From IMG/VR virus record IMGVR_UViG_3300042376_001667: a DNA stretch of 64,000 nt; one strand, written 5' to 3'. How positions within the stretch are numbered: position 1 is the stretch's first letter; the number at the start of each line of letters is the position of its first letter. Below the pieces are notes generated by a model, which saw only the letters and a list, made by a program, of their open reading frames with translations, made no database searches and was not told the origin of the DNA. The translations under genes and the position numbers were made by a program. Shown here piece after piece: positions 4,314 through 54,203 of this stretch. The stretch is from an uncultured virus (IMG/VR IMGVR_UViG_3300042376_001667) (Duplodnaviria > Heunggongvirae > Uroviricota > Caudoviricetes).

Positions 4314-4329
4314 CCCGTTAACTTAACCC
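4314..4329 (+). promoter_or_regulatory. variant copy of repeated motif (CCCGTTAACTTAACCC), candidate phage RNAP promoter
   Basis: 14/16 identical to the exact copies at 24193 and 49001; intergenic, upstream of a strongly codon-biased gene. Confidence 0.55.
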
Positions 4330-5895: not shown

Positions 5896-5899
5896 TTAA

Positions 5900-8146: not shown

Positions 8147-8154
8147 AAATTAAA

Positions 8155-8242: not shown

Positions 8243-8244
8243 TT

Positions 8245-8379: not shown

Positions 8380-8398
8380 ACCATAGTTGAGGTAGTAA

Positions 8399-9941: not shown

Positions 9942-9951
9942 AGGAAACACT

Positions 9952-16261: not shown

Positions 16262-16387
16262 GTGAGAGAGAAGTATGAAGGACAAGGGCTAGAGCGATTT
16301 GGCTGGACCTTAATAACACTCGCCGTAATTGGAGGATTGTCTTTGGCGGGATGGCTTGGCTGGGGGTTGTGGAAATGGTTGAGTTAA
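16262..16387 (+). CDS. small predicted membrane protein (41 aa)
   Basis: GGAGG RBS, GTG start overlapping previous stop; hydrophobic WTLITLAVIGGLSLAGWLGWGLWKWL. Confidence 0.5.
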   Translation: MREKYEGQGLERFGWTLITLAVIGGLSLAGWLGWGLWKWLS

Positions 16388-24192: not shown

Positions 24193-24208
24193 CCCGTTAG
24201 ATTAACCC
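24193..24208 (+). promoter_or_regulatory. repeated motif CCCGTTAGATTAACCC, candidate phage RNAP promoter
   Basis: Exact 16-mer shared with 49001-49016 (flanks AGCCAAA and A also shared); precedes the morphogenesis module. Confidence 0.65.
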
Positions 24209-24520
24209 AAGGACGTTCCTCCCTGAAGATATCACCTAAGGACACCTTAGTTAGTAGTATTGTATTATAGTAATATTATATATAAATATAGTATATAGTA
24301 TTATAAATATAATAAACTAATATAACAAAATATACTTAAAGATAACATTGAAGAAGGTACCTTCTCGATGCCGTCGGTTCGGGCTTTGCGCTAAGTCGAT
24401 GATTTTTAAGGACTTTTTGAAAAGGTTGGAATAAAGTGGTGTTTGTTTTTCTGTGTTAGAAACCTTGCGCCACAGCCGGGAGGAACTCCCTAACAAATAC
24501 CGAATAGGAGCAAGTTTACT

Positions 24521-25501: not shown

Positions 25502-25720
25502 ATGCCAGACCAAAGAACTCTTGACACTTTAGACTTAGAAACAGTGAATAAAGTGTTAGACCAAACACTTGAACAATCTATTCAATCAGAGAGAAGCTTT
25601 GATGCTATACAAAGCTTTCTAACAAATTACAAGATTAATTTAGAGCATGTCGCTAAATCAAATCAAAAAGAAACTTCGATGCAATATGAAAGTTTCTATC
25701 GGATTACTAATTTAATTTAG
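25502..25720 (+). CDS. hypothetical protein
   Basis: GAGG RBS before ATG 25502; ends just before TerL. Confidence 0.55.
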   Translation: MPDQRTLDTLDLETVNKVLDQTLEQSIQSERSFDAIQSFLTNYKINLEHVAKSNQKETSMQYESFYRITNLI

Positions 25721-25722
25721 AG

Positions 25723-38761: not shown

Positions 38762-38771
38762 AGGAGGTCTT

Positions 38772-38939
38772 ATGTTATTACAAGATATTGTACAAATTCT
38801 TAATAACAAAATAGAATCGCTAAAAGCTAAAAAGACCATTGCTGTTAATTCCGGAGAATTGGAACAAGTTTACCAGTTAGATCTTCAAATTTCCGAAACG
38901 TTAGCAACATTGAATCAGCTAAAGACGCTATTGGTATAA
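38772..38939 (+). CDS. small hypothetical protein
   Basis: AAGGAGG RBS before ATG 38772. Confidence 0.65.
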   Translation: MLLQDIVQILNNKIESLKAKKTIAVNSGELEQVYQLDLQISETLATLNQLKTLLV

Positions 38940-38942
38940 TCT

Positions 38943-40535
38943 ATGTTATTAACCCTGCTCCAATCTAGTGGCACTGCAAGCTATAATCTTGTTGGAGCAA
39001 ATTCTAACCAAGATAATAGTGCCCCGTCTTTAGCAGTAGTTCAAATACACAATTTAGTAGGCGATTCTTCGATACAGTCTAACAATTTATCGTCAGGAAG
39101 CTTGTCAGGTGCCGTTGAGCTAACAGGTTCTTCAAGTCTTCAGATAAATATTAGCCAGTCTGGTGCTGTAACTCAAACACATGCGTTAGTTGCCGATTCT
39201 TTAGTACAGACTAACAGCTCAGCATTAGGTAACATTTCTGGCACTGTAAATTTAATTGGGTCTACAAGTTCTCAAGCAAACAGTGCTAGTTCTGATGTTA
39301 TAACTCAAACGTATACATTAATAGCTGACTCTTTAATACAGACTAACAATTTATCGTCAGGAAGTCTTTCTGGTGCTATAAGTTTAATAGGTGCCTCAAG
39401 CTCTCAAGCAAATAGTTCTGCCTCTGCTGCTGTAAGCCAAACACATAATTTGCAAGGAATAATTTCTACACAAGGGCAATTATCAGTTTCAACAGCTGTT
39501 GTACAGCAACACAATATACAAACAGCTACTTCACTGCAATCTAATTTATCTTCTACAGGTTCTGTAACAGGTACCGTAAACTTGACTGCAAGCCCGGACA
39601 TTCAATCTAATCAATCAGCTGCTGGTGAATTGGGTGGAAATATACAACTGGTAGGTTCGCCACTTAATCAATCAGCAGTTTCTTCAGCTAATGCGATAGT
39701 TCAAAGATTCGACTTACTAGGCAGCAATGCTACTCAAGATGCAGTCTCAAGCCTTGACGCAATTGTCCAGAGATACAACCTTGCAGAGAGTTTTGTTACT
39801 CAAACTAGCAGCTCTAGCACGGGTAACATAAGTCTCATCAGACAATTAGAAGGCACTGATACTGTACAATCAAACAGCAGTTCTTCAAACTCTGTTCAAG
39901 TTATCTATCAAGTTGTTGGTTCTAATGCTGTCCAAAACAATGCAAGCAGTATCAATTCAATTCAGTATATTGTCAATTTACAAGCTTCATCTGTGAGTTC
40001 GATAAATGTATCTGCTGAAGGTAATGTTGTACAAGCCTTGAATTTGCAAAGTGCCGCTACAAACACATGTCTCAACGAAAGTCTTTCTAGTGGCATTTCT
40101 CAAATACATAATATTTTGGCTGCTACTTCTTCACAAACAGCTCAAAGTATTATAAGCTTTATTCTTGTTGATTTGTCAACAACACAAGTAAATAATTTAT
40201 TGAGCTTTGTAGATAACAACCTGAGATTTAACCCGACTGTTGAAAATCTTGCGTCAGGGCTCTCTAACATCCTTAACAGCGAACAGTTGTCTAGGCTCTT
40301 AAATATTCTTGGCATGCCCGGTTCAAATCTTGCTGAGGATATCGTAGATGAACTCTTAAGTAGACTTACACAACAACCACTTGTAGTGGACTTGTTAAGT
40401 GCTACTAAGACAGACGTTGCACAAGCTGTTAGAAATAATCTAATGTCAACAACAATACCTGTCAATGTTAAGCAAGTAAATGATGCTTACATTAAAGGTA
40501 CAGGCCAACCTGGCAATGAATGGGGGCCACTATGA
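38943..40535 (+). CDS. Ser/Gln-rich repetitive structural protein
   Basis: About 24-aa repeats (LxGxxSxQxNxSxSxxVxQxH); acidic, almost no Lys. Confidence 0.65.
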   Translation: MLLTLLQSSGTASYNLVGANSNQDNSAPSLAVVQIHNLVGDSSIQSNNLSSGSLSGAVELTGSSSLQINISQSGAVTQTHALVADSLVQTNSSALGNISGTVNLIGSTSSQANSASSDVITQTYTLIADSLIQTNNLSSGSLSGAISLIGASSSQANSSASAAVSQTHNLQGIISTQGQLSVSTAVVQQHNIQTATSLQSNLSSTGSVTGTVNLTASPDIQSNQSAAGELGGNIQLVGSPLNQSAVSSANAIVQRFDLLGSNATQDAVSSLDAIVQRYNLAESFVTQTSSSSTGNISLIRQLEGTDTVQSNSSSSNSVQVIYQVVGSNAVQNNASSINSIQYIVNLQASSVSSINVSAEGNVVQALNLQSAATNTCLNESLSSGISQIHNILAATSSQTAQSIISFILVDLSTTQVNNLLSFVDNNLRFNPTVENLASGLSNILNSEQLSRLLNILGMPGSNLAEDIVDELLSRLTQQPLVVDLLSATKTDVAQAVRNNLMSTTIPVNVKQVNDAYIKGTGQPGNEWGPL

Positions 40536-40672
40536 TGAATGGTTGGGGTAAATCCTGGAGCTATTCATGGGGAACATCTTGGGGACACTTTGTAGTAGCT
40601 GCTGTGCGGACTATTACAAAGATGCCCTCAAGGTATCTCACTTTTCCACGTTTTAAATTAGGTAGAAGATAA
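40532..40672 (+). CDS. small hypothetical protein with SWG repeats (46 aa)
   Basis: Coupled to both neighbours (ATGA and TAATG); MMNGWGKSWSYSWGTSWG. Confidence 0.55.
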   Translation: MMNGWGKSWSYSWGTSWGHFVVAAVRTITKMPSRYLTFPRFKLGRR

Positions 40673-40899
40673 TGTCAGTCGAAATGAATACTCCCTCTCC
40701 CACGCTGGGTCTCACTATCGAGGACACAGCTAACGTTATGCAGGCAGCACCAGAAACTGTTCGAAAGACTAAGGTGGTTCCAAGCGACTGGAATATTACT
40801 CCAGTAGAAGGTTCTGATGATATCTTAGCTGTCAATACAAACACGCGTGAGACTTTTACAGGTTCTGTCGAAGAGTTTAATAAATTCTTGAGAGGTTAA
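40672..40899 (+). CDS. hypothetical protein
   Basis: 75-aa ORF directly upstream of portal. Confidence 0.65.
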   Translation: MSVEMNTPSPTLGLTIEDTANVMQAAPETVRKTKVVPSDWNITPVEGSDDILAVNTNTRETFTGSVEEFNKFLRG

Positions 40900-40903
40900 T
40901 CTT

Positions 40904-42478
40904 ATGGCAGTTGTAAATGCTGCTCTTGCAAATAAAACTGTCTCAGATCCAAATGCTGAATACGAATCCTTAAGACCTTTGTGGCAGAAAAGCCGTGCTA
41001 TCTGCAGTGGAGAGCGTTTTACAAAAGATTTTGATAGTTACCTAGATGTTGGTAATTTTACAAATCTTTTAATTCCGTTCTCCCCTAGTATGACAGCTCA
41101 ACAGTACCAGTTTTACAAGGCAGAAGCTGAGCTGCCTGGTATTGTTGCGCAATTTGCTAAAATGCTTGTTGGAGGCTTGCTTAGAAAGCAACCTGTGCTT
41201 TCATTACCTCCGGGAATACCTGAAGAAGTTCAAGACTGGATTATGAACCAGTTTGGTCAAGATGATTCAAGTCTTATTGGCTTTCTTGATGCGGCATTGT
41301 GGGAAGAATTACAAACAAGCCGTGCTTGGATTTATGTAGATCACCCTGTAGTAGACCCAGACACTCTTAGTGTAGAAGATAAGCAGCTGTTAAAGCCGTA
41401 CCCCGTACTCTGGCAAGCCGATTCAGTTATTAATTGGAGAACGCGTAAGGATCCTTTTGGTAAGATGATTTTAGATCGTGTAATTGTGCGATCTTATGAA
41501 GAGTCTTTCGAAAAGAACGAGTTCCATCCATCTTTTAAAGACACAGTTCGTGTGCATGAACTCGATGAATCAGGCTTTTATCAGATCAGAGTATTTCAGC
41601 AAAGGTCTGATACAACTTCTGTACAAGTTGTAAATGGTCAACAACAAAAAGAATTTTCTAACCGAAAACCTTCGTTTGAATTAGTAGAGACTATTCAAAA
41701 TATTTTAAATAATGGCGAAAGGCTTAGGATAATTCCTGCCTGGCCTTTGAATGGCTCAGTTAATTTATTAGAGCCAATTTTAATGCCTATTATTGATAAA
41801 GAGGTCAGTCTTTACAATAAGATAAGCAGACGAAATCATTTGCTATATGGAGCTTCTACTTATACTCCAGTCATCATGTCTGACATGAATGATGATGAAT
41901 TTGAAGAAGTGGTTAACAAAGGCTTAGGTTCTTGGCTGAGGCTTAGGCAAGGTGATGAAGCAAAGGTTTTAGAAACACCTACAGCCGCATTGCAAGATAT
42001 GGACAGGGCTATTGCTGCAGCTATTGAGGAAATGGCAAAGCTTGGCATTCGAATGCTGAGCCCAGAATCTGCTCAATCTGGTATTGCTCTTGAAATTCGA
42101 AATGCAGCTCAAAACGCTCAATTAGGTTCTTTGAATACTAAAATAAGCTCTACTTTGAGGGCAGTGATTTGCTTTATGATCAATTGGAGATACAATCTTC
42201 AGTTGAGACCTCAAGATATTAACTTTAGTTTGTCTTCAGACTTTAATCCAATACCCTTAGGCGCCGATTGGTTGAGACTTGCTACAGAGTGGTACCAACA
42301 AGGTCTGATTCCTCGTTCTATTTGGTTAATGATTCTCAAGCAAAACGATATGATACCTCCTGACTATGATGATGAAGAAGGTAAAATGGAAATTACAGCT
42401 GATATGGAGGCTGTAATGAAAGCTCAACAGGGGTCGTCTGATTATGCAAGTAAAATAGCTAACACAGAGGGTTTATAA
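40904..42478 (+). CDS. portal protein (DUF4055-like)
   Basis: 524 aa, GAGG RBS, head-module position; N-terminal P..EYE..RP.W...R, YQFYK.AE, helical SG.A.EIR region. Confidence 0.8.
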   Translation: MAVVNAALANKTVSDPNAEYESLRPLWQKSRAICSGERFTKDFDSYLDVGNFTNLLIPFSPSMTAQQYQFYKAEAELPGIVAQFAKMLVGGLLRKQPVLSLPPGIPEEVQDWIMNQFGQDDSSLIGFLDAALWEELQTSRAWIYVDHPVVDPDTLSVEDKQLLKPYPVLWQADSVINWRTRKDPFGKMILDRVIVRSYEESFEKNEFHPSFKDTVRVHELDESGFYQIRVFQQRSDTTSVQVVNGQQQKEFSNRKPSFELVETIQNILNNGERLRIIPAWPLNGSVNLLEPILMPIIDKEVSLYNKISRRNHLLYGASTYTPVIMSDMNDDEFEEVVNKGLGSWLRLRQGDEAKVLETPTAALQDMDRAIAAAIEEMAKLGIRMLSPESAQSGIALEIRNAAQNAQLGSLNTKISSTLRAVICFMINWRYNLQLRPQDINFSLSSDFNPIPLGADWLRLATEWYQQGLIPRSIWLMILKQNDMIPPDYDDEEGKMEITADMEAVMKAQQGSSDYASKIANTEGL

Positions 42479-42479
42479 A

Positions 42480-42917
42480 ATGCCGGACAATAAAGTAAAC
42501 AATCCTGAAGGTAAAAATCAATATACTGGAAAGGGTAAATCTTCTGAGCCTTACAGGTATTCTATTGGTGGTTATTTTGCCACTAAAAACACACAAAAGA
42601 CATTAAATACCCTTACAACCGATTCCTATAAAAGAGCTGAAGCTGCGAATAAAGAAGCTGGTCAAGCTTATCAAAAATACGAGAAAATTCCTCCGAGCTT
42701 TCGAAATGATCTTTCTGAGAACGAGTATAAAAAAGTTTTATCTGCATCACAAAAAGCTAATGAAGAAATGAATAGATCTATCCTTATTTCAGAAGCTTCT
42801 GCAAATTATAGAAAAATAAGTAATCCTATTGATTATAGCAAAGCTTTTGCCAAACAAACTGTAGTTGACACAAAACAAATTGCTCAAAATATTCGTAAAC
42901 GCATGTGGGGTGGATAA
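42480..42917 (+). CDS. putative internal head protein 1
   Basis: N-terminal NKVNNPEGKNQYTGK shared with 43383; basic. Confidence 0.55.
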   Translation: MPDNKVNNPEGKNQYTGKGKSSEPYRYSIGGYFATKNTQKTLNTLTTDSYKRAEAANKEAGQAYQKYEKIPPSFRNDLSENEYKKVLSASQKANEEMNRSILISEASANYRKISNPIDYSKAFAKQTVVDTKQIAQNIRKRMWGG

Positions 42918-43372
42918 TGGCCGTAAATGAAAAAATCAGTGAAGCTCTCAAAGGCAACACCAATGCTGCAAAAAATCATGCTAAGAAAGGTATTGCTGCA
43001 ATTCAAAATGCCAGTAACCGTGCAAAAGTTGTAGCAGGCGGAGCTTTTGCAAATACTGCTAAAAAATTAGATAAATTCAATGACAAAGCTATTGATGTTA
43101 GACAAAGTGCAGCATACGCTGCAGGAGCAGCTGTTGGAGCTCCTATAGGAGCTATAGGAGGAGCTGCTTTAGGTCTTTCTGCAACTCGGGGCATGGATAA
43201 AACAGATAAACAGTTAGCTTACCGAACTCTTGCAGTTGGTGCTACTTCTTTCATGGGTGCTGTAACTGCTGCAGACTATCTTGGTAAAAAGACGCAAAGA
43301 GGTGTGAATAGTCTTAATGAGTATCCAGAAAAAGCTAGACAATCACTAAAAAACAAACTAAATAGCAGGTAA
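42917..43372 (+). CDS. putative internal head protein 2 (Gly/Ala zipper)
   Basis: AAGAAVGAPIGAIGGAALG hydrophobic glycine-zipper segment. Confidence 0.55.
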   Translation: MAVNEKISEALKGNTNAAKNHAKKGIAAIQNASNRAKVVAGGAFANTAKKLDKFNDKAIDVRQSAAYAAGAAVGAPIGAIGGAALGLSATRGMDKTDKQLAYRTLAVGATSFMGAVTAADYLGKKTQRGVNSLNEYPEKARQSLKNKLNSR

Positions 43373-43382
43373 TCAAGTCGTT

Positions 43383-43994
43383 ATGAATAAAATAAATAAT
43401 CCTGAAGGTATAAATCAATACACAGGAAAAGCTAAAGCAATAGTTGAAAAAACTAAAGTAAAGGCTGGAGGTGTATTTGCCAGTACTAAAGAAAAGTCTA
43501 AACAAGGCTGGGAAGCTGTTGATAAAACAGTTAAGTATGGTGCCGCCGGTGCTGCTATTGGAGGTGCAGCAGCTTTAGGTGGTGTTGGCGGAGCTAGGCT
43601 TGCTACAAATGCAATTGGTTCGGGCACTAAAGCTGCAGTGATAGGTGGTGCTGTAGGTGCCGGTGCAGGCTTTCTATCTGCAAAGTCTACCGAGAAGTAT
43701 TTAAGTCCCGAAACTAATAAGAATCGAAATATTCTGAGAGCTGCTGCAACAGTAAATACAGGCGCGCTTGGTGCACTTGGTGGTGCGGTAGGTTATATGG
43801 GTCTTAAGGCATTAGGAGCCCCTACTCCTGCAAAAGTTGCTGCGGGTGCTGTTATTGGCGGCGCAATTGGAGCTTATCAAGGCTACAAAGCTGATAGGGC
43901 CGAAGCTGGAAAAAGAACTGCAGATGCTGCAAATAAATCATTAGAAGAAAAAGCAAAAATAACAGGCTATCAAAGACAATTCAAACAGGTGTAA
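43383..43994 (+). CDS. putative internal head protein 3 (Gly/Ala zipper)
   Basis: [16 protein letters not shown]-terminus; four GxxxG-rich hydrophobic segments. Confidence 0.55.
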
Positions 43995-43996
43995 AA

Positions 43997-44155
43997 ATGC
44001 CACTTAAAAAAGGCTATTCTCAAAAGACAATTTCCAAAAATGTTAGTATGCTTGTGGATGAAGGGCGTCCTCAAAAACAAGCCGTTGCAATTGCTTTAGA
44101 AACTGCTAAAGAAGCAAAGAAAAAGAATGTTAAAAAGAACAACTCTAAAAATTAG
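43997..44155 (+). CDS. small basic phage protein (52 aa, below ORF track cutoff)
   Basis: [16 protein letters not shown]...[12 protein letters not shown], a recurrent small protein of phage head modules. Confidence 0.75.
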
Positions 44156-44170
44156 ATTTTAAAGAGTTAA

Positions 44171-44310
44171 AAATATGCAATTTAAAGCGGTCCTAGGTGT
44201 CTGCGGGTGCATATGACATGGCTGAGGTATGGCCATTTGTAAAAAATTGCACCTGCAGGCAGCCTGGGTACCAGTCGGGGCCATCCTGCGACTACCGCAG
44301 CTGAGAGGTT
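44171..44310 (+). ncRNA. candidate structured 5' leader RNA of the MuF-RNAP gene
   Basis: GC-rich intergenic; 20-bp stem 44192-44211/44248-44268 with three G-U pairs and one bulge; overlapping small hairpins next to the GAGAGGT RBS. Confidence 0.55.
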
Positions 44311-44313
44311 GAT

Positions 44314-47300
44314 ATGGCGAATAACGCTAATACTGATATATACGACAGAACGATAAACAGAGCTGCAATGATCAGGCTCTATGAAAGACGTATTAACGAG
44401 AAAGTAGAATCAATAATAAACGAACATACTGGTAGGCTTGACGGAATTGTCCGTGACGGAGACTTATCAGTTAAAGGTCGAAATAAATTGTTTGAGGCAA
44501 TTGATAAAGAATTGCTTAAAACTCATAAAGAAACATTTAATGTTACAAAACGTTCATTGCTTGATTTAGTTTCTGATCAACTGTCATACACTTATCAGAC
44601 AGTTGAAGTTGCAATGAGTAAAATTTGGCGTACAGAAAGACCTGCTAAAAGAGTTGCTGAAGATATTGTTCTTCAAAGACCTTTATATCAAGATCAAACT
44701 CTAGCTGCTGGTTGGGCTAGCGTTAGTACAGCTGAAAAGAAGCGGCTCGAAGCTTTAATTCGAAAAGGTATAGCAGAAAATCATACAATCGACGAGATAG
44801 CTTTAGACCTCCGAAAAGGAAATATTCACAATATAACAAGATCACAATCAAAAGGTCTTGTTGTAACTGCCGTAACCTCAGTTACTTCGCAAACTGACCA
44901 CGAAGTTTATAAGGCTAATAGTCAAGCTATTAGAGGTTGGCAGTATGTTTCTGTGCTAGATTCTCGTACAACACCAATTTGTATACACAGAGATGGTAAG
45001 ATATATGATATGTCTGAGACCTCTTATCTGCCTCCTGCACATTTTCATTGCAGATCGACAACCGTGCCTGTTTTTAAATCTTGGGATGATATTTCCAAGC
45101 TAGAAGGTGTAGCTCAAATACGCCGACGTAATATTGAGAATTTGAGCAAAGATCAAATATCATATTATGACGGACAAACGCCTTTGCGAGAATCTTACAA
45201 TTCTTGGCTGCTTCGTCAGCCTAAAGACGTTCAACTAAAACATCTAGGTGATTATCAAAAAGTTGAATTGCTTAATAGTGGTCAGTTAACTTTAGACAGA
45301 TTTACTAATCCAGAAGGCAACTCCGTCGGTATAAAAGAGCTCCGCGCCATTACAGATAGTGGCTATACATTGCCAAATGACACTAAGAGATTTGCAATTG
45401 CAAAAGAAAAATTAGATGCAATGCAATTAGGAGCAAGTACACCTGACGACTTTATCGATAATGAGAAGCTTCGTAAAACATTGGTGGATTATTACTTGTT
45501 ACAAAGCGCAGAGTTGAACGGGACACTATCGCTAACTAACTATCGAGGTGTTCTTACAAATGTCAAACGTGGCGTTAAAAATCGGGTATTAACGTCTCCT
45601 CCTCGAGAAGACCAACTAAAGTTCAATCCGATAACAGGACGATATGAAGACGTTAGATTATATCAACCAAATTCAGCTGTCTTGGCTAACAACACAAGAC
45701 TTATCCAAGAAAGTGATAAGTTATTGGACAGAGACAGGGAATTTATATCTAAAGTCTTGGATGGTCTTTCTGAGAAAATGAGTGTAAACGAAAGAGCTGT
45801 TGTCGCGGACAATCTTCGAATTATCTTTAGCAGATACAGAGATAACAAAGAGCCCTGGACAAATTTTAAAGCGGTAGTTCAAGGTCAAATAAAGTTTGAT
45901 GTAATGAACGTTTCGGATGCTATTGAAACTCAAATTCGAAAGGATTCTGATGTTTTAAAGAAGCTTCTTCAGGATAACTACTTAGATCCTGTTTTAGGTC
46001 CTACACAGTTACAGGAACTTCATGATAATTTCATTTCTAATATTCTTGCAAGAAATAAGTGGGAAGATAAAACAGCTCCTAAAATCGCGCAGGAATTAAG
46101 AACAGTATTTGATTACAAAATACCCGCTAAAATACGTTTAAGGGTATCTGACCGCGATTTGCAGCAATTCTATTTAAAGTTTGCTCATCGTTTGAGCTTA
46201 GCAGATTCGCCAGATAGAGACAGCTTTGCAGTTTCGTTAGGAAGAGATCTTTACAATCTTGCAAATTTTAATGGCAATCGGCGTGAATGGTACGATCTTG
46301 GCATGAAACTCTTAGAAGCCAAGAACGTTAAGAAATTCTTCGAAGTTGAAACTTTCGGTGTTCAAAAGCGAAGAATGAAAAGCAGACTAAGCGGTCAATA
46401 TTTTGGTCCGTACTATGATGCGTTATCTTATAATATTAGAATTGTAGATCCTAGAATTCAAGAGTACGCTAAGCTAAATAGAAAAGTTGAACTTGGTCTT
46501 CGAGTTTCTGTAACAGAAGACAAAAATAGGCTTCTATTTAGAGAAGGCTACAAAACATATTTCATTGATAGAGGAATTTTAGGGTTAGAAGATACAAGAA
46601 TTCCAATTACATCAACTAGCAGCTTTAGTGATTTCCCTGAAGAATTTGTAGACAAAAATCTAGTTGATGCTTTGAATTGGGCTTCCAAAGCTAAGTATAA
46701 AATTGACGAAGACTATTTTGATTTTACACAAAAGTTATTATATTTTGAGGACGACAAGGGTCAAGCTAAAAAGTATAATGATTTGAATGAATATCGAAAA
46801 TATATTTCAAGCCGTGGCGACGCTTACGAGCGTTTTAAGGCAATGGAATGGCTTCGTAAAGATGACAAGGCGTTTAGTAATCATCCTTTTATTGATCATC
46901 GAGCACGTATTTATGATCGTGGTTTAATCGGTCCTCAGTCTGGTGAAACATTTAGACCCTTTCTAAATACAGATGTAGCTAAGAACTTTAGTCCCGAAGA
47001 TTTTGAGAACTTTCAAGATCAGATCGGATCTTTCTTAGGAGGACTTAGCGATTACTTTGAGGGAAAGTTTAATTCTCTATCAATCACAGGAAGACAGAAG
47101 ATAGCAGAAAAGTGGCGTCCTGAGCTTGTTCGCATTGGCAATCACATGCTTAGAAAGAAACCAGCAGATATTCGTGCTATTTTAGAATCTGAAATATTTC
47201 AAAAAATTGATGGCGAAGAACTTAATAAGTTTTTGCGTTTTGCGTTAGAGACTGCTAAAATTGATAATTACTTAGCAACTGACAGTCTCGGTTCAAAGTA

Positions 47301-48993
47301 TTCAGTTAAAAACCTTCAAAGGCTTCGTGATTACAAAACAGCGCTAGCCTTAGAACAAGATGCTTCGTCTTCTGGCGCTCAGATTATTGCATTAACGACT
47401 CGTAATAAACAGCTGGCAGAACTTAGCAATGTAGTCCCTACAAACCAAAAGAAACGTTTGTATGACGAAATTGCGGCATTAACTTATAATGATCCTAGGT
47501 TTAGAGAACTCAACCAAAAGTTAGGCTTAAATGAAAAAGATTTGAGAAAAGCTTCTAAGGCGCAAAACATGGTAACATTCTACGGCGCTGGCGAAAAAAC
47601 CAGTGGCCTAAATGTAGAAGGTAAACTGTCTAAGGTTTTAGATAAGCAAGAGAATGTCTTAGTCGTCAAGGCTTCTGAAAGAGATGTAGTTCTTAATGAG
47701 ATTTCTGCAAGAATTGCAAGATACGAAAAATTTGATCCAGAAACTGCCGAGGAACTTCGACAATTACGACAAAATGTCAGAGACATTTTTAATAAAGGTT
47801 TAGATCCTGGCGATGAAATTTTAGATCAGCTTTATTTTCTAGAACCTAAAACAAAAGAACTTGTTGAGAAGTTGTCTCAGTCGTACGAAAAAGTAGTTAC
47901 ACCTGATGATTTTAAAGCAATTGCTAGAATCATGAGTGAATACTTATCAGAGCAAGTCCCTATACTTAAAGATTTTACTAGGTATTTTGGTAGATTAGCT
48001 GAAGATTATTTGGCAAATGCAAAACCGTCAAATAGTGACTTTGATTGGGAATCTATTGCAAAAACACAATTAGTCGGTACAAGACAAAAGGGCTATACGC
48101 TACCTGATAATGTAAGCAGATTACTAGGTGTAAAAGCAGGTGAACCTGTATCAGAAAAACTGCTCAAAAGATTTGGCTTTTGGAATCCCAATGGCACATT
48201 AGCTCAAATTATTTTTGGTGTAGATTCTCCTGAGTATCGTCGAACTGGCGCTAAATATCTTAAAACTGAAATCATTGTCCCGACAATCGATCTTAAAAAG
48301 GGTGCATTAGCTAAAGAAGTCTCCCTTAGTGGATTTGAAGTATTTAAGGCAAATAAACTACCTAAAAGCTGGACGAATGTGCCTTGGGTTAATTTTGATG
48401 GTAAAATTATTGAACAAAATTTTACACAATCTTTTGAAGAACGACTTGTTTATAAAGATAAATATGGTAACTGGACTACTAACATATTGCAGCTACCGCA
48501 GAAAACTGAGATATCGTGGGTAGATACGCTGATTAACAAGTCGGGAAAGATTAACGATATTGCTGACCTAACTCGTGCAAGAACAGCATTCGCAGTTAAT
48601 GGCAATCACTCTAATGATGCTGTAATTGTTAAAAAATTTCATCTTTGGGGTAAGAAAACAGGTGTTCCAACTTCTACTATTCATGATGCCTTCTTTACTA
48701 ATGCAGCAGATATGCTTACTGCAAGGTCAGCCTTGAAAGAGATCTATGCAGACGTGTTAGATAAGAATGTTATCAAGATGACGCTAGATGAAATGAAAGC
48801 CAGAGGTTTGCCTAAGGAGTTATATGATAAGTATCTTGAAGAAGCTATTGAAAAAGGTTTAATACCTATTCCAGGAAAATCTAGAGTTGGTGATAAAATT
48901 TTAAATGAAAAAGACATACTGAATAGAAAAGATATTTTAAAGGAAATTCCTAAAGGTTTTTCCAATGACTATGGATGGTACGGTGTTGGCTAA
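44314..48993 (+). CDS. MuF/SPP1-gp7-like minor head protein fused to T7-type single-subunit DNA-dependent RNA polymerase
   Basis: MuF core WQYVSVLDSRTTPIC...DG...PPAHFHCRST (aa ~209-249); RNAP motifs DHRARIY (aa 861), A EQDASSSGAQ (D1016), B RKASKAQNMVTFYG (aa 1078-1091), AVNGNHSNDA, C TIHDAF (D1458). Confidence 0.9.
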   Translation: MANNANTDIYDRTINRAAMIRLYERRINEKVESIINEHTGRLDGIVRDGDLSVKGRNKLFEAIDKELLKTHKETFNVTKRSLLDLVSDQLSYTYQTVEVAMSKIWRTERPAKRVAEDIVLQRPLYQDQTLAAGWASVSTAEKKRLEALIRKGIAENHTIDEIALDLRKGNIHNITRSQSKGLVVTAVTSVTSQTDHEVYKANSQAIRGWQYVSVLDSRTTPICIHRDGKIYDMSETSYLPPAHFHCRSTTVPVFKSWDDISKLEGVAQIRRRNIENLSKDQISYYDGQTPLRESYNSWLLRQPKDVQLKHLGDYQKVELLNSGQLTLDRFTNPEGNSVGIKELRAITDSGYTLPNDTKRFAIAKEKLDAMQLGASTPDDFIDNEKLRKTLVDYYLLQSAELNGTLSLTNYRGVLTNVKRGVKNRVLTSPPREDQLKFNPITGRYEDVRLYQPNSAVLANNTRLIQESDKLLDRDREFISKVLDGLSEKMSVNERAVVADNLRIIFSRYRDNKEPWTNFKAVVQGQIKFDVMNVSDAIETQIRKDSDVLKKLLQDNYLDPVLGPTQLQELHDNFISNILARNKWEDKTAPKIAQELRTVFDYKIPAKIRLRVSDRDLQQFYLKFAHRLSLADSPDRDSFAVSLGRDLYNLANFNGNRREWYDLGMKLLEAKNVKKFFEVETFGVQKRRMKSRLSGQYFGPYYDALSYNIRIVDPRIQEYAKLNRKVELGLRVSVTEDKNRLLFREGYKTYFIDRGILGLEDTRIPITSTSSFSDFPEEFVDKNLVDALNWASKAKYKIDEDYFDFTQKLLYFEDDKGQAKKYNDLNEYRKYISSRGDAYERFKAMEWLRKDDKAFSNHPFIDHRARIYDRGLIGPQSGETFRPFLNTDVAKNFSPEDFENFQDQIGSFLGGLSDYFEGKFNSLSITGRQKIAEKWRPELVRIGNHMLRKKPADIRAILESEIFQKIDGEELNKFLRFALETAKIDNYLATDSLGSKYSVKNLQRLRDYKTALALEQDASSSGAQIIALTTRNKQLAELSNVVPTNQKKRLYDEIAALTYNDPRFRELNQKLGLNEKDLRKASKAQNMVTFYGAGEKTSGLNVEGKLSKVLDKQENVLVVKASERDVVLNEISARIARYEKFDPETAEELRQLRQNVRDIFNKGLDPGDEILDQLYFLEPKTKELVEKLSQSYEKVVTPDDFKAIARIMSEYLSEQVPILKDFTRYFGRLAEDYLANAKPSNSDFDWESIAKTQLVGTRQKGYTLPDNVSRLLGVKAGEPVSEKLLKRFGFWNPNGTLAQIIFGVDSPEYRRTGAKYLKTEIIVPTIDLKKGALAKEVSLSGFEVFKANKLPKSWTNVPWVNFDGKIIEQNFTQSFEERLVYKDKYGNWTTNILQLPQKTEISWVDTLINKSGKINDIADLTRARTAFAVNGNHSNDAVIVKKFHLWGKKTGVPTSTIHDAFFTNAADMLTARSALKEIYADVLDKNVIKMTLDEMKARGLPKELYDKYLEEAIEKGLIPIPGKSRVGDKILNEKDILNRKDILKEIPKGFSNDYGWYGVG

Positions 48994-49000
48994 GCCAAAT

Positions 49001-49016
49001 CCCGTTAGATTAACCC
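49001..49016 (+). promoter_or_regulatory. repeated motif CCCGTTAGATTAACCC, candidate phage RNAP promoter
   Basis: Exact copy of 24193-24208; just after the RNAP stop and upstream of the scaffold-capsid operon. Confidence 0.65.
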
Positions 49017-49098
49017 AGGTGAGAATCTCCACAGATAACATCTGATTTTAAAATAAAGATTGTATCTTTATTAAATGAGTCGTACTCAAGGAAACAAA

Positions 49099-49782
49099 AT
49101 GTCAACTGATACAAATCAAGAAGATCAAAACAACGTCGATGACTCTTCATCTGACAAGAGCACAACTGAAACTAACAAGGACACTACAGCAGGCTCAGCA
49201 GATCCTGTTGAGAAGCTTGTAGAATCTCGTGTTCAGGAGGCTCTTAAAGATATTAAGCTGAAGCTCGATAAAGCATATAGCGTCAGAGATGAAGCTTTGC
49301 GTAAAGCTGCTGATATTGAGCAAGCTAGAAAACAAGAAGAGATCAAGCGACTTCAAGAGGATGGTAAGCATAAAGAAGCACTTGAACTGCAACTTGCGGA
49401 AGAGAGGGCACAGAGAGCTGCATATGAAAAACGTGTCGTAGAACTAACACGCGACATGGACCTCAAAAATGCGCTAAGCACTTACTCTTTCAAAAATGAA
49501 AATGCCTTCAGTATGGCATATCGTGAAATTGTGGATCAACTCGCCCAAGATGACAAAGGAATTTGGAGACACAAATCGGGTGTATCTCTTAAAGACTTTG
49601 TAAAGCAATTTGCAGATGATGAAAACAATGCTTTCTTGCTGAAACCTAAAGTATCTTCTGGTTCTGGCAGTTCGACAACGAAGGTTAAAGATTCTTCGAG
49701 TGGTATGTCCGGAAAGTCTATTTTCGAATTACCGCAAGACGAAGTTTTGAAACTCGCTAGAGAAGGCAAATTGAGAAAATAA
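49099..49782 (+). CDS. capsid scaffolding protein
   Basis: AAGGA RBS; acidic N-terminus, coiled coil, SSGSGS linker near the C-terminus; immediately before the capsid gene. Confidence 0.8.
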   Translation: MSTDTNQEDQNNVDDSSSDKSTTETNKDTTAGSADPVEKLVESRVQEALKDIKLKLDKAYSVRDEALRKAADIEQARKQEEIKRLQEDGKHKEALELQLAEERAQRAAYEKRVVELTRDMDLKNALSTYSFKNENAFSMAYREIVDQLAQDDKGIWRHKSGVSLKDFVKQFADDENNAFLLKPKVSSGSGSSTTKVKDSSSGMSGKSIFELPQDEVLKLAREGKLRK

Positions 49783-49808
49783 CCTTCCTAGCTATCTAGG
49801 ATAATAAA

Positions 49809-50996
49809 ATGACTGTTCGTGTTAACGTTGCTGGTGCCGACAATTTTGTTCTTCAGGAAGCTATTAGCGCTTACTCTGACGAAGCATATACCACAGCTAG
49901 AAAGCTTTCTGGTACCGGTATTGTCGGTTCTAATCCCCTTATTGATACTTCCACCGAAACTTTCGTCGGTCAAGTCCGTTGGTACAAGCCGCTGAATCCT
50001 ACCATTAACGTTGCATCCTTGACGGACTCGACTGATGGTACGGGTACTTCTTACAGCTCTGAGTATGTTAACTATGTTAAGACTGTGCGTACGCATGGTG
50101 CTAACAAGGTCAACATGCAACAAGTTGTGACGCAAGTAGACGGCCTTGCCAAGATCGGTCGTGACTTTGGTGAAACAAAAGCTCAAGACGAGCATAATGC
50201 AGTGCTGGCTGTGTTGCGTGGTGTTGCTATTTCTGAAGCTCTTAACGGTTGCGCTGCAGGGTCTGGCAATACAGGTCTTGGCGGTCAAACTTTTGACAAT
50301 GACCCTTCGAACAGACGCTTCGGCTTTTATGTCGATTTAGGCGCTAACAAGCCTATTGTTGATGCAACCGCTGCTGTTCAAGGTGCTGCAAGAGCTGAAG
50401 GTTTCTTGAGAGCCTTTGGGATGGCCTATAAGGACTATGAGCCTGATTATGCTTATCTTGTCTGCTCTCCTGAAATCGTGGCTTCTTTGCGTTCTGCGAA
50501 TCTGGTTGATAGCACTACCGTTGTTGATGGTAATATCACTTTCAACACAATCTTCCAAGGTAAGTTCCGTCTGATTCAGACTCGTGCTTCCCAAGGTTTT
50601 AGCTCTGCTGAGCTGACAAAGCTCAATACTGGCGCTGGTGTTGACATTGTTGGTTCTAAAACTTCTTTCATTGTTCTTCCTGGTGCACTGGCTATGGAAC
50701 CTCTTGCTGTTCCTGACAGTGTTGAAATTGAGCGTAAAGCTGCTGCTTATAAAGGTGGTGGTACTACCGCTGTGTGGTATCGTTGGGGCTATGTTGTGCA
50801 TCCTGCCGGCTACAATTGGGCTGGTTCGCAAGACGCTTTCCCCTCTGATACAGACTATGTTAGCGTCTTAGAAGGCGCTACCCAGAAGGCTCTGGCAAGT
50901 GTCGCTTCTGGTACGTTGGCATCAACTGGCGGTGTATGGGCACGTAAAGCTAGCTCTGCGCTTAGCTTGGGTATTCTGCCTGTGTTCCATGCCTAA
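49809..50996 (+). CDS. major capsid protein
   Basis: 395 aa, strong codon bias, position after scaffold; RWGYVVHPAGYNW C-terminal pattern. Confidence 0.85.
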   Translation: MTVRVNVAGADNFVLQEAISAYSDEAYTTARKLSGTGIVGSNPLIDTSTETFVGQVRWYKPLNPTINVASLTDSTDGTGTSYSSEYVNYVKTVRTHGANKVNMQQVVTQVDGLAKIGRDFGETKAQDEHNAVLAVLRGVAISEALNGCAAGSGNTGLGGQTFDNDPSNRRFGFYVDLGANKPIVDATAAVQGAARAEGFLRAFGMAYKDYEPDYAYLVCSPEIVASLRSANLVDSTTVVDGNITFNTIFQGKFRLIQTRASQGFSSAELTKLNTGAGVDIVGSKTSFIVLPGALAMEPLAVPDSVEIERKAAAYKGGGTTAVWYRWGYVVHPAGYNWAGSQDAFPSDTDYVSVLEGATQKALASVASGTLASTGGVWARKASSALSLGILPVFHA

Positions 50997-51014
50997 TAAC
51001 TAAGGAGAACACTT

Positions 51015-51494
51015 ATGGCTCTCGTTAAAAATGTAAACTCATATGCAACTGTAGAAGAAGCTAACACCTATTTTGCAGACCGCATAGACGTTGCTGCTTG
51101 GACGAATGCCGTTCCTGATCAAAGAGCACAAGCGTTAGTAACTGCTACAGGTTTGCTTGATGCTTTAGATTGGGTCGGTTATGCCGTAAGTGATTCTCAA
51201 TCTCTTGCTTTTCCAAGATTCGGTGTTTATTTTGACCCACGTTTAGGTAAAGAAGTAATTCTTTCAGAAACTACAGTTCCAGATAGAGTTTTAAAAGCTG
51301 TTTATGAGTTGTCTTATCACTTGCTAAATAATGATGGCTTATTAGATGATACAGGATCTGTTAAAGATCTTTCTGTTGGGAGTATTAAATTAACACTTGT
51401 TAAGAGTGCAAACAAACTGCCAGTAGTAGTTAGAAATTTGGTTAAACCGTTAAGAGTTAATGGCGGCTTAAATCTTTGGTGGAGAGCTAACTAA
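51015..51494 (+). CDS. head-tail adaptor protein
   Basis: NSYATVEEANTYF...ALVTAT..LD...QSLAFPR pattern; follows capsid gene. Confidence 0.8.
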   Translation: MALVKNVNSYATVEEANTYFADRIDVAAWTNAVPDQRAQALVTATGLLDALDWVGYAVSDSQSLAFPRFGVYFDPRLGKEVILSETTVPDRVLKAVYELSYHLLNNDGLLDDTGSVKDLSVGSIKLTLVKSANKLPVVVRNLVKPLRVNGGLNLWWRAN

Positions 51495-51847
51495 TGAGCT
51501 ACAAAAACCTTGTGGACAATAGTTTAAAGTTAGCATTTAATTCTGTAAAAGACCTAGCCAAAGAAGCAACTCTTACAAAGAAAACGAATCCAACGTTTAA
51601 CTTTGGAACCGGAGAGTCTGAGTTTCAATCTACACAAAATGTATCAACTAAAGTAGTAGTTTCCCAGTATTTGAAAAATTCTAAAGATCGGAATTCTATC
51701 AAATGCGAAATACTACTTAAAGCTAGTGAAGTTGGCGATTTAAACAACTACTCAACAATTTCTTTTGACTCTAATACCTGGAATTTTGCAGATATTCAAA
51801 AGAACGATGGTTTTATCTTGATTGCTAATGTTTATAGAGAGGCCTAA
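51494..51847 (+). CDS. putative head closure protein
   Basis: Synteny, 117 aa. Confidence 0.6.
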   Translation: MSYKNLVDNSLKLAFNSVKDLAKEATLTKKTNPTFNFGTGESEFQSTQNVSTKVVVSQYLKNSKDRNSIKCEILLKASEVGDLNNYSTISFDSNTWNFADIQKNDGFILIANVYREA

Positions 51848-52255
51848 ATGGGTAAATACTCAAATGTACAAGATGACATTTTCTCTATATTCAATAGCAC
51901 TTCTTGGAAAGCAGAAAATATAAAGACATTTCCAAATAACTTTGTAGCAGTTACTCCTGGAAATGAATTTATAAGAGTATCAGTTATTAGCAGGAATGTC
52001 GGCATAAATATTGAATCCGTATCTGGGATATTAATGATAGACATATTTACGTCTGCTGGAAATGGCCCTAAGCGCGCTAATCTAATTGCAGATAAGTTAG
52101 ATCAGTATCTTGTTGGTAAAAGTGTCTCTACAACTTCAGGCAATGCTACTCAATTCATGAATAGCACTTTAGACTTTAGAGGTTTAGATTCATCAGATCC
52201 ATCTTTATCACGATCTAACTACTCAGTTTCGTTCAATTACTTTAGGAAACAATAA
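51848..52255 (+). CDS. putative tail terminator protein
   Basis: Synteny; GILMIDIFTSAGNG...IADKL pattern. Confidence 0.7.
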   Translation: MGKYSNVQDDIFSIFNSTSWKAENIKTFPNNFVAVTPGNEFIRVSVISRNVGINIESVSGILMIDIFTSAGNGPKRANLIADKLDQYLVGKSVSTTSGNATQFMNSTLDFRGLDSSDPSLSRSNYSVSFNYFRKQ

Positions 52256-52857
52256 TGGCTCACATTTCCTCGCTCGGCGCCGGTATGTACTCGGACCTTG
52301 CTATTGCAATGGCTTCTAGTGCGCCTACTTTTGCAAGCTTAGATACTGCTACAGAGTTCCAAAATCTATTTGCTACTGAAATCGAATCAGCTGGCGGTAC
52401 AAAAGGCACTAATACGTTTGTTCGTGTTAAGAACGTTCGTGAATTCCCTGCTATGGGTGTTCCTGCCAACGTTGTTAATGTTCCCGTGTACGGCTCAAAG
52501 ACCTCTCGTCAAATTCAAGGTCAAGCTGATGCTCCTTCCTTAGAAATCACTTTAAATTATATTTCTTCGGATTGGGCTGATGAAACCACCAATTTGCTAG
52601 GTTCTGCTGTTGGCGATGGCAATCAGTATGTGTTCCGTTTTACTCTGCTAAATACAGAGCCAACCGGAGCAACACTGACAACCCGTTATGCCTCTACAGC
52701 AGCAGGGCTTGGCACTGTCCAAAACAGTCAGTACTACTGGGTTGGCAAGCTTGAAGCTCTGCTTGTTACTCCTCAGTTGACAGATGCTAATACAGCCACT
52801 CTGACTCTGACGATGCAGTCTGACTTCTACGGTGCTTTCACCTCTAACGCAAGTTAA
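52255..52857 (+). CDS. major tail (tube) protein
   Basis: VREFPAMG...VNVPVYG...QIQGQADAPSLEITLNY; codon bias; upstream of chaperones. Confidence 0.8.
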   Translation: MAHISSLGAGMYSDLAIAMASSAPTFASLDTATEFQNLFATEIESAGGTKGTNTFVRVKNVREFPAMGVPANVVNVPVYGSKTSRQIQGQADAPSLEITLNYISSDWADETTNLLGSAVGDGNQYVFRFTLLNTEPTGATLTTRYASTAAGLGTVQNSQYYWVGKLEALLVTPQLTDANTATLTLTMQSDFYGAFTSNAS

Positions 52858-52959
52858 TTAATATTTAGGGATATTCCTTGGCGAAGAATATTTAAATAAT
52901 CTCCCGCCAACACGTAAATAGTCGTGTGGAGGTGCCCTTCTTTTATAAAGCTGTAATAT

Positions 52960-53187
52960 ATGGATCAACGACCATTTAACATGGGATATGTGTTGCGCAC
53001 TACAGCTAAACACATGAGAAAGAGTATTGATATTAGCATTCGTAAGACATTTGAAAGAGTGCCTGAATTTGTTAGTAATCAAGAAAAATCGCAAGAAGTT
53101 TTTAAAACGCTTGCATTTTTACATACAATGAGGAAGCAATTAGATGACTTCCAACATCAAAATTCCAATGATTTCAAAGGGGAATAA
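52960..53187 (+). CDS. hypothetical protein
   Basis: 75-aa ORF between tail tube and chaperone genes. Confidence 0.55.
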   Translation: MDQRPFNMGYVLRTTAKHMRKSIDISIRKTFERVPEFVSNQEKSQEVFKTLAFLHTMRKQLDDFQHQNSNDFKGE

Positions 53188-53188
53188 A

Positions 53189-53494
53189 ATGGCAGAAGGT
53201 ATTAAGAGTCTTGTCGGTAAGAAAATGACAAAGACTGTAAAATTTATCGGGGAAGATGTTAAAATCTCCAAGCTAAATGTTGCAGAGGTAATGCAGATTC
53301 AAGAGAAAGCAAAACTCCTTGAATCTGATCAAACAACTGGACTTGACCTTTTAAAGAAAGTTATTAAGCTTTCAGTAGAAGGTGCATCAGACTTAACTGA
53401 TCAAGACTTCGATTCGTTCCCAATGGATGAACTTTCAAAGTTGTCTAATGAGATTATGAAATTTTCAGGAATTGCTGGTGATCAGGGAAAGTAA
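53189..53494 (+). CDS. tail assembly chaperone (gpG-like)
   Basis: Ends in G GGA AAG TAA slippery site; upstream of tape measure. Confidence 0.8.
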   Translation: MAEGIKSLVGKKMTKTVKFIGEDVKISKLNVAEVMQIQEKAKLLESDQTTGLDLLKKVIKLSVEGASDLTDQDFDSFPMDELSKLSNEIMKFSGIAGDQGK

Positions 53495-53829
53495 TACTTT
53501 CAGATGAGGAGTTAGTTCTTTTCGAATTAGCTTTTCATTTGAAAATACCTGTATATAAGTTGATCCATGAGATGCCATATGATGAATTCTTAAGATGGAC
53601 AACTTATTTCGAACAAAGACCTATAGAGTGGCGCGATGATTTTAGAACATCGCAAGTCATGCGTGTATTTGGAGATAAACGAGCTCCCGATCAAATATTT
53701 CCGTCGCTGTCGATCATATTTAATAAGAAAGATACGAGTCCTGTTAAATCTTTAAAAAATTCTAGAATCTTTCAAAAAATGTTATCTGCAAAAAATGGGG
53801 ATAAGTTACAAATATTGGAGACGCTGTGA
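53491..53829 (+). CDS. tail assembly chaperone extension (gpT-like, read through -1 frameshift)
   Basis: Open -1 frame from the slippery site to 53829; MPYDEFLRW..YF pattern. Confidence 0.75.
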   Translation, partial: VILSDEELVLFELAFHLKIPVYKLIHEMPYDEFLRWTTYFEQRPIEWRDDFRTSQVMRVFGDKRAPDQIFPSLSIIFNKKDTSPVKSLKNSRIFQKMLSAKNGDKLQILETL

Positions 53830-54152
53830 TCAAAATGAGCATTAAAAATATTGATGAAACGTTTAAATCTATTTTAAATCAAACACAAACCTTGACTCAA
53901 AAAGAAGCAAGAAAGATTGTTGGTACTCTTGTTACAGAGCTGAGAGAGGCTACACCATTAGATACTGGTTTAGCTAAGAGTTCTTGGGCTGTTCAAGAAG
54001 CTCCTGGAAAATTTAATATTACTAATGATACTAAGTATATTCAGTATTTGAATAGCGGTTCATCCAAACAAGCTCCTCCTTATTTTATTGAAGCTACGGC
54101 ATTGAAATACGGAAAGCCATTAGGTACAATTGTTCAAGTTACAAGCGATTAG
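53826..54152 (+). CDS. HK97 gp10-like tail completion protein
   Basis: TPLDTGLAKSSW...YIQYLNSGSSKQAP..F. Confidence 0.75.
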   Translation: MIKMSIKNIDETFKSILNQTQTLTQKEARKIVGTLVTELREATPLDTGLAKSSWAVQEAPGKFNITNDTKYIQYLNSGSSKQAPPYFIEATALKYGKPLGTIVQVTSD

Positions 54153-54189: not shown

Positions 54190-54203
54190 AATTGAGGAAA
54201 GTG

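Follow-up and report, generated by a model that had tools for sequence, protein, structure and literature searches.

RNA polymerases (RNAPs) that travel in the virion are known from N4-like, crAss-like, P23-45 and jumbo phages. In the accessible sections of one survey, the virion RNAP (vRNAP) of N4 is described as a central polymerase flanked by regions for injection at the N-terminus and for encapsidation at the C-terminus, and virion RNAP modules are reported only in N4-like phages (Iyer 2017). The available portion of the literature on the Thermus phage P23-45 describes gp96 as the enzyme that transcribes pre-early genes, including the gene of the non-virion RNAP gp64. In the stretch of 64,000 nucleotides analysed here (the window), which belongs to an uncultured tailed lake virus (IMG/VR record IMGVR_UViG_3300042376_001667; Caudoviricetes), one plus-strand gene (44314..48993) joins a minor head protein domain of the MuF type to a T7-type RNAP. 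Comparison of this fusion gene with its relatives suggests that the MuF-anchored polymerase is probably packaged, ejected and used to read early genes in an N4-like relay of two polymerases.

The fusion gene is a single open frame of 1559 codons and a stop, with no internal stop codons, and its 1559-residue product matches both the MuF and the RNA polymerase families of Pfam above their cut-offs. The ATG at 44314, the first in frame, is likely the start of the gene: residues N6 and D11, which lie on the 5' side of the next methionine, are kept in more than 90% of the 33 full-length homologues (20-82% identity) that were aligned to assess conservation, and GAGAGG sits a few bases 5' of the start. 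Logan contigs from two lake-water runs of other studies bridge the fusion junction (44674-47979 and 44169-48382), with no insertions or deletions relative to the window and only one difference, which is synonymous (GTC to GTT, V481). Because the contigs of two independent lake assemblies bridge the junction, the fusion is not an assembly chimera; together with the single open frame they bear out the fusion noticed in the initial annotation of this locus. A nucleotide search of phage records gave no matches.

Residues 1-348 (44314..45357, +) constitute a MuF/SPP1 gp7-type head-morphogenesis domain. The head morphogenesis family phrog_241 matches residues 1-346 (E = 5e-59), and Phage_Mu_F (PF04233) matches residues 145-250 with 45.4 bits against a cut-off of 29.6. 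The MuF signature, found by regular expression as D216-SRTTPICIHRDG and PPAHFHCRS at 240-248, contains nine residues that are invariant among the 33 full-length homologues (D216, T219, C223, P240, P241, H243, C246, R247 and S248). An AlphaFold2 model of residues 1-600, with a predicted local distance difference test (pLDDT) score of 88.1, has 119 matches at E <= 0.001 among the predicted viral structures of BFVD, and those with names are nearly all minor capsid or head morphogenesis proteins. The top match is a protein of 1463 residues, the length of the homologue in the cultured phage DSS3_VP1; the third is a MuF-ADP-ribosyltransferase fusion of Xanthomonas phage Xp12 (E = 3e-15); others include a protein of 361 residues (template modelling (TM) score of 0.81 for the target) and the head morphogenesis protein of phage Halfdan (TM score 0.68). 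Against PDB, Foldseek returned no matches to the 1-600 model at E <= 0.001.

The order of the head and tail genes on the plus strand is portal, three small open reading frames (ORFs), the fusion gene, scaffold, major head protein, head-tail adaptor and tape measure (54192-60203). The MuF domain presumably docks on the portal protein (40904..42478, +; phrog_145, E = 4e-56, DUF4055), and the scaffold and major head genes (49075-49782 and 49809-50996, within 49075..50996, +; phrog_206 and phrog_247) follow the fusion gene closely. The fusion is the sole MuF match among the 50 ORFs of the window that were scanned. The 2003-residue tape measure encoded in this block indicates that the phage is of the long-tailed type. 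Both the MuF/SPP1 gp7 signature that the initial annotation had noticed in the first ~300 residues and its placement of the gene in the usual MuF position, between portal and scaffold, are upheld by the family matches, the invariant residues and the annotation of the neighbours. A prediction of the complex between the portal protein and residues 1-348, run without controls, gave scores of 0.01 and 0.00, relative to a mark of 0.32.

The polymerase module is complete, T7-like and of the single-subunit type, and is predicted by VIA-align, Foldseek and profile search to span residues ~566-1559 (46009..48990, +). RNA_pol (PF00940) matches the fusion protein in two stretches with 45.1 bits (cut-off 22). 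Two polymerase families of PHROGs, phrog_414 and phrog_2051, match around residues 1005-1106. The catalytic motifs of T7 RNAP, previously picked out in order in the C-terminal ~700 residues, were all recovered at the same positions by regular expression, alignment and fold, and the Pfam and profile searches and structure predictions that had been suggested as checks retrieved both domains. On the plus strand these motifs are DxRxRxY, as DHRARIY at 861-867 (46894..46914), aligned to T7 421-427 in the DWRGRVY region; the motif A catalytic aspartate D1016 (47359..47361; T7 D537), which begins DASSSG and is aligned to DGSCSG of T7; motif B with R1078, K1082, Y1090 and G1091 (47545..47586; T7 R627, K631, Y639 and G640), which reads RKASKAQNMVTFYG at 1078-1091; NGNHSND at 1429-1435 (48598..48618), corresponding to the H784/D787 region of T7; and motif C, H1457-D1458 (48682..48687; T7 H811-D812), within HDAF at 1457-1460 and aligned to IHDSF of T7. 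R865, D1016, K1079, K1082, Y1090, G1091, D1435 and D1458 are invariant in 33 of 33 homologues, and the invariant tyrosine of motif B is the counterpart of the one that selects ribonucleotides in T7. With these motifs intact, the polymerase is apparently catalytically competent.

The polymerase is strongly diverged, since a search of PDB with the single sequence of the whole fusion protein finds nothing at E <= 0.01. A profile of the 33 homologues retrieves T7 RNAP with E = 1.8e-26, mitochondrial RNAPs with E = 4.7e-19 and weaker, and N4 RNAPII with E = 2.7e-7. The AlphaFold2 model of residues 400-1559, made from a 64-row alignment, has a mean pLDDT of 86.4 and a predicted TM score of 0.84; Foldseek ranks mitochondrial and T7 RNAPs first among its matches (E ~1e-18), and VIA-align superposes it on T7 RNAP (8dh5_E) with Z = 29.0 and a root mean square deviation of 3.4 A over 529 residues, and on the N4 mini-vRNAP (3c46) with Z = 19.0. 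Positions 167-1160 of this model span T7 residues 39-883. According to the models, then, the C-terminal half is a full T7-like RNAP, with the right-hand fold of thumb, palm and fingers and a counterpart of the T7 N-terminal domain.

The only stretch of the 1-600 model with pLDDT below 50 is residues 349-358 (45358..45387, +), a probably flexible linker that divides the MuF part from the remainder of the protein. It is followed by a mostly helical middle domain, residues 359-565 (45388..46008, +), which is confidently modelled within both the 1-600 and the 400-1559 predictions and has no assignment. The initial annotation had left a region of ~550 residues between MuF and polymerase unrecognised; that description holds only for residues ~359-565, since the part from ~566 onwards is the polymerase's own N-terminal domain by the alignment to T7 39-883. 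The proposal that the middle region is a separate promoter-recognition domain was ruled out, as residues from ~566 align structurally with T7, including its N-terminal promoter-binding domain.

Relatives of the fusion protein fall into 412 database clusters at 90% identity. Both Pfam families were detected in 114 of the best 120 of these 412 clusters, and the remaining six are shorter and probably cut. A HMMER pass over 1.84 billion representatives returned 159 proteins at E <= 0.001, approximately twenty of which are full-length (1264-2073 residues, 23-38% identity, with the polymerase match beginning near residue 700). Among 23 divergent full-length forms, Phage_Mu_F was detected in all 23 and RNA_pol in 18 at E <= 0.001 (21 and 16, respectively, above the cut-offs), and 427 of 428 pattern-matched stretches of IMG/VR viral contigs encode a relative of the fusion. 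The cultured Naomviridae roseophages DSS3_VP1 and DSS3_PM1 encode the fusion at the equivalent genomic position, with 31% identity over 87% of the query. In GenBank such homologues are labelled 'minor head protein-like protein' or 'head protein', and the polymerase is unnamed. Judged from sequence, the architecture is common to hundreds of uncultured phages and two cultured marine phages, and the fusion is real and old. The chance that the gene is instead an assembly chimera, a frameshift artefact or a decayed polymerase remnant is negligible: nothing was found in favour of this explanation, the contigs of two other runs bridge the junction, hundreds of contigs share the architecture, the catalytic residues are invariant and the full model is confident.

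Some alleles of the gene are interrupted inside motif B. In the parts that it shares with the window, the closest long relative (G007) has 88-96% nucleotide identity, and its fusion gene is longer by ~860 bases, inserted at a site that corresponds to window 47562, in codon 1083. Rfam identifies a group I intron there (RF00028, 89.3 bits, E = 3.5e-23; G007, L099, 9467-10353), followed by an ORF of 198 residues. The window possesses an intron-less allele. EBPR siphovirus 1 has, likewise at the equivalent position, a fusion homologue with 59% identity, in which an HNH gene lies between the two halves. Such interruptions account for the large number of database entries of half length, which have an end or a start near residues 1082-1092. 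A connection of the fusion with deoxyuridine-containing DNA (dU-DNA), suggested by the Naomviridae, since the DSS3 phages have dU-DNA (PMC8323127), was dropped because a gene of the dCMP deaminase family is present in just one of five relatives. Full-text literature searches, in which few subscription journals were included, found no description of any MuF-RNAP fusion, and the main texts of the DSS3_VP1 paper (PMC8323127) and of a paper on dU-DNA enzymes (PMC12697855) do not contain 'RNA polymerase' or 'RNAP'.

A second polymerase accompanies the fusion. All eight related records of at least 61 kb encode both the fusion and a separate, free T7-like RNAP, the frame of which comprises ~750-1013 residues where unbroken and matches PF00940 far better than the fusion does, with 106-214 bits; the score is ~210 bits in the five records with most of the domain in one frame and lower where the domain is split. 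The complete genome of the cultured phage DSS3_VP1 has a free RNAP too, and only this free gene is annotated 'RNA polymerase'. The free enzyme of G007 finds T7 RNAP directly (E = 1.7e-38), and its similarity to the fused enzyme is limited to the motifs (BLASTP E = 3e-5 over 67 residues). About 26 kb of the 89,879-bp source contig lie outside the window, and synteny with G002 and G007 indicates that the window stops short of the part where the free polymerase and replication genes reside; evidence for a second polymerase, and for the class 2 boxes described below, therefore comes from the relatives. This free polymerase would turn the system into a two-enzyme relay. In G006 (L089, 9391-10014), an ORF of 207 residues on the 3' side of the free RNAP gene and a class 1 box has a match to the T7 lysozyme-like family phrog_2252 ('endolysin; inhibits RNA polymerase'; E = 2.8e-39), and its product might regulate the free RNAP.

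Cysteine content distinguishes the fused enzymes from the free ones. The fusion protein has only two cysteines, both of them invariant MuF residues (C223 and C246), and none in the 1210 residues after MuF (350-1559). In the 50 other plus-strand ORFs of the window with at least 100 codons, cysteine makes up 0.59% of residues, so that ~7 would be expected after MuF; under a simple independent model the probability of none is ~8e-4. The post-MuF part is likewise cysteine-free in 30 of 33 homologues, a loss that spans 1100-1700 residues, and the other three carry two cysteines each. DSS3_VP1 has the two MuF cysteines and none after MuF in its fusion protein, and seven in its free RNAP. Free RNAPs whose whole frame could be read, in three of five relatives, have 8-10 cysteines in ~750-775 residues, and two partial frames of ~530 residues have three and five. 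N4 presents a parallel: gp50 (3500 residues) and the co-ejected gp51 and gp52 have no cysteines at all, and its non-virion DNA polymerase, primase and rIIA/B have 6-13 each.

This pattern bears on whether the polymerase leaves the virion as an active enzyme. It might not, if the MuF half served in head assembly and the polymerase half acted late in the cytoplasm or were removed from the head, for example by cleavage of the linker. The gene does belong to the late structural block, processing could take place within the probably flexible linker (349-358), and the evidence for packaging is indirect. Nevertheless, such a fate is improbable, because a late cytoplasmic polymerase would duplicate the free RNAP, the loss of cysteine in 30 of 33 homologues would be unexplained beside the 8-10 cysteines of whole-frame free enzymes, and the fusion has been retained across lineages down to ~20% identity.

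Two classes of promoter-like box were found from words repeated in intergenic DNA. Class 1 (consensus CCCGTTANNTTAACCC) has three exact copies in the window, all on the plus strand, where 0.01 would be expected: one in the small-ORF/tRNA region (4314..4329), one upstream of the terminase block (24193..24208), and one, CCCGTTAGATTAACCC, located 8 nucleotides past the fusion stop codon (49001..49016), on the 5' side of the scaffold and major head genes. G003 to G007 each have four or five copies at no more than one mismatch, and G002 has none, only a variant with two mismatches; a class-1-like box is found on the 3' side of the fusion gene in six of six relatives. Other class 1 copies in G006 are on the 5' side of the terminase block, of the lysis genes, and of the replication block that starts right after the free polymerase gene. 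Class 2 (consensus TTGCGGAAAA-N4-5-GTATCTTATATGA) occurs at 18 sites with no more than one mismatch in six relatives (G002-G007), compared to a mean of 1.4 and a maximum of 4 in 20 shuffles. In all six relatives, copies of class 2 precede small unassigned ORFs 1-3 kb on the 5' side of the gene for the free polymerase. The simplest reading of this arrangement is that the free polymerase would read class 1, as in T7, and that class 2 would drive the early genes, including the gene of the free polymerase.

Many class 2 boxes (for instance at G006 43899, G003 16228 and G007 40911) were seen by eye to precede a short hairpin directly, with stems that vary from site to site but begin GATA and end TATC, and sites without a hairpin immediately precede AAGGAG. 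Hairpin-type promoters like those of N4 were considered for class 2 and rejected, since four sites, inspected by eye, run directly into a Shine-Dalgarno sequence; this adjacency implies that transcription would start within the box and that the hairpins would be in the RNA leader. A scan of 38000-54000 for sigma-70 promoters and terminators gave counts at chance level.

The proposed sequence of events, in which we infer packaging, ejection, activity and the pairing of each enzyme with its box, would be as follows. During head assembly the N-terminal MuF domain would place the protein at the portal of the procapsid in low copy, with a catalytically competent T7-like RNAP as its cargo. Upon infection, the cysteine-free polymerase part would cross the tail with the DNA or ahead of it and then refold, and the fused enzyme would transcribe the earliest genes, starting at a promoter specific to the phage that is represented by class 2 in the relatives. 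Among these early genes would be that of the second, free and canonical T7-like polymerase, which would in turn read the class 1 boxes in front of the genes for replication, lysis and structure, among them the block with the neighbours of the fusion gene. The idea, already present in the initial annotation, that MuF acts as a packaging tag for co-injection fits the cysteine-free polymerase part, the sole MuF protein in its canonical position, the free RNAP of the relatives and the separate class of early promoters.

Several observations weigh against this scheme. The relay is derived from the relatives, because the window does not include the region of the free RNAP, and class 2 has no sites in the window at two or fewer mismatches. 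For no member of the family did the literature searches find proteomics of virions, data on transcription or an assay of the enzyme; no RNA run is listed among the sequencing runs that contain the sequence; and the main text of the DSS3_VP1 paper (PMC8323127) contains neither virion mass spectrometry nor a mention of RNA polymerase. The profile of 33 homologues failed to retrieve the N4 vRNAP from PDB at E <= 1, so the analogy to N4 would be functional rather than a family relationship. Low cysteine content is common in structural proteins: both the 2003-residue tape measure (54192-60203) and a tail protein of 340 residues have none. The tape measure protein, however, is itself believed to exit through the tail. 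Finally, class 2 contains TTGCGG-N16-TATGAT, which resembles a sigma-70 promoter; if it were a host promoter, the phage would follow the scheme of T7, and this would leave the function of the fused enzyme without an explanation.

The last of these points leads to a scheme of the T7 type, in which host RNAP would read class 2, the free phage RNAP would do the rest, and the fused enzyme would be packaged chiefly for another task, either pulling in the genome by transcription while tethered near the portal or priming DNA replication. Both tasks have precedents, since DNA entry is driven by transcription in T7, and the T7 and mitochondrial RNAPs prime DNA replication. The -35-like TTGCGG and -10-like TATGAT of class 2 have a 16-nucleotide spacing, the free RNAP gene is situated between the early promoters and its own presumed promoters in the manner of T7 gene 1, and an amidase similar to T7 lysozyme (phrog_2252) is on the 3' side of the free RNAP gene in G006. 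This scheme is nonetheless unlikely, although it retains an appreciable chance. The 13-nucleotide core GTATCTTATATGA is identical in 14 sites in five of the six relatives, whose fusion proteins are ~70% identical to that of the window, and most of this core occupies the place that a sigma-70 spacer would take, a point in favour of a dedicated enzyme for class 2; the last base of the would-be -10 element varies (T, A or G); and it would be unusual for a polymerase to be carried into the cell without cognate promoters.

If the relay of packaged and free enzymes operates as proposed, the common MuF head anchor would be a new route for loading an RNAP into the virion, and the family would provide a T7-type virion polymerase in long-tailed phages as well as two new pairs of polymerase and promoter. 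Proteins that pass through the tail could then be recognised in sequence by their complete lack of cysteine. If MuF keeps the enzyme near the portal, its transcription could also help to draw the genome into the cell. A broader proposal is tentative and falls somewhat short of an even chance: MuF-anchored T7-type RNAPs might be a third, widespread class of injected virion RNAP, beside the N4 type and the two-barrel type of crAss-like, P23-45 and jumbo phages, which together with the free RNAP would make long-tailed phages of lakes, wastewater and the sea, Naomviridae among them, independent of host RNAP from the first minute, with class 2 as the promoter of the fused enzyme. Two members of the family are in culture, on the tractable marine bacterium Ruegeria pomeroyi DSS-3.

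The surroundings of the fusion gene have further features. The three unassigned ORFs between portal and fusion gene (42480-43994) may encode further capsid-targeted proteins; this cassette differs in length and content from those of the relatives, and the ORFs that start at 42480 and 43383 open with a near-identical stretch of 51 nucleotides (86%). Directly on the 5' side of the fusion gene is a long, imperfect, GC-rich (55%) hairpin (44190-44271; -55.6 kcal/mol, z = -3.6), the energy of which was reached by none of 200 shuffles. It is kept in the close relative G007 and absent from the 5' side of the gene in G002, G004, G005 and G006; a processing site, an attenuator or a terminator is conceivable. 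An extremely AT-rich stretch of ~70 nucleotides within 24271-24370, just on the 3' side of the class 1 copy at 24193, may act as an origin or regulatory region, and two tandem 62-nucleotide copies (76% alike), each with a 10-bp inverted repeat, directly precede the terminase gene (25584-25722).

Elsewhere in the window, two genes match inhibitors of host defence: Tad3, a type I Thoeris inhibitor (12228-12752, E = 3.5e-29), and Acb3, a CBASS inhibitor (13511-14350, E = 9e-45). ARAGORN identified five tRNA genes (Met, Thr, Lys, Leu and Arg) within 5516-10489, and Rfam alone matched a sixth tRNA at 7286-7355; the Rfam scan of the window yielded only tRNAs. An ORF of 333 residues (16351-17352) with six copies of a degenerate 35-nucleotide repeat lies in an island of 52% G+C in a phage of 38-39% G+C, and library scans of the window proteins found no family match for it.

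Among described systems, T7 RNAP shares with the fused enzyme its fold and all catalytic motifs, and the boxes are, as in T7, short, conserved and strand-specific. The T7 programme is also similar in that the free RNAP gene of the relatives is found between early promoters and those presumed to be its own. However, the T7 enzyme is an unfused and unpackaged protein produced early in infection from host promoters, whereas the fused enzyme is too diverged for its single sequence to match any solved structure. DSS3_VP1 resembles the window phage in having the fusion in the same place, a free RNAP and the same pattern of cysteines. In the portions of the literature available on MuF-fused effectors, a group of polyvalent proteins and MuF polymorphic toxins with such members as the MuF-ADP-ribosyltransferase of Xp12 and a MuF-RelA_SpoT toxin, an N-terminal MuF domain in the head module likewise bears an enzyme at its C-terminal end that is believed to enter the cell along with the DNA, although the cargo here is a template-dependent polymerase of ~1000 residues rather than a toxin or host-modifying enzyme. 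The Thermus phage P23-45, in the accessible part of its description, is similar in carrying a virion RNAP (gp96) within a structural protein of a long-tailed phage, and different in that its RNAPs are of the two-barrel kind, with a fold unrelated to the T7 type, and the carrier is the tape measure rather than MuF. On that partial description, P23-45 is the nearest precedent for a virion RNAP fused to a structural protein of a long-tailed phage.

With gp50 of N4 (Schitoviridae), the fusion protein shares a T7-like single-subunit module that, according to the available sections of the N4 literature, is made late, resides in the capsid (presumed here) and is succeeded by a second, more canonical phage RNAP; both proteins are free of cysteine in their polymerase parts, and the folds align at the Z score given above for the mini-vRNAP. 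In contrast to the ~3500 residues of gp50 and the podovirus morphology of N4, the fusion protein has 1559 residues and belongs to a long-tailed phage. It begins with MuF and its RNAP extends to the C-terminus, whereas the same sections place the encapsidation region of the N4 protein, with a zincin-like domain, at the C-terminus. In sequence the fusion is nearer to T7 RNAP than to the N4 vRNAP, and the free partner in the relatives is a single chain, unlike the two-chain RNAPII of N4. N4 is the functionally nearest system, and by size, carrier, tail type and sequence the fusion is probably not a member of the N4 family.

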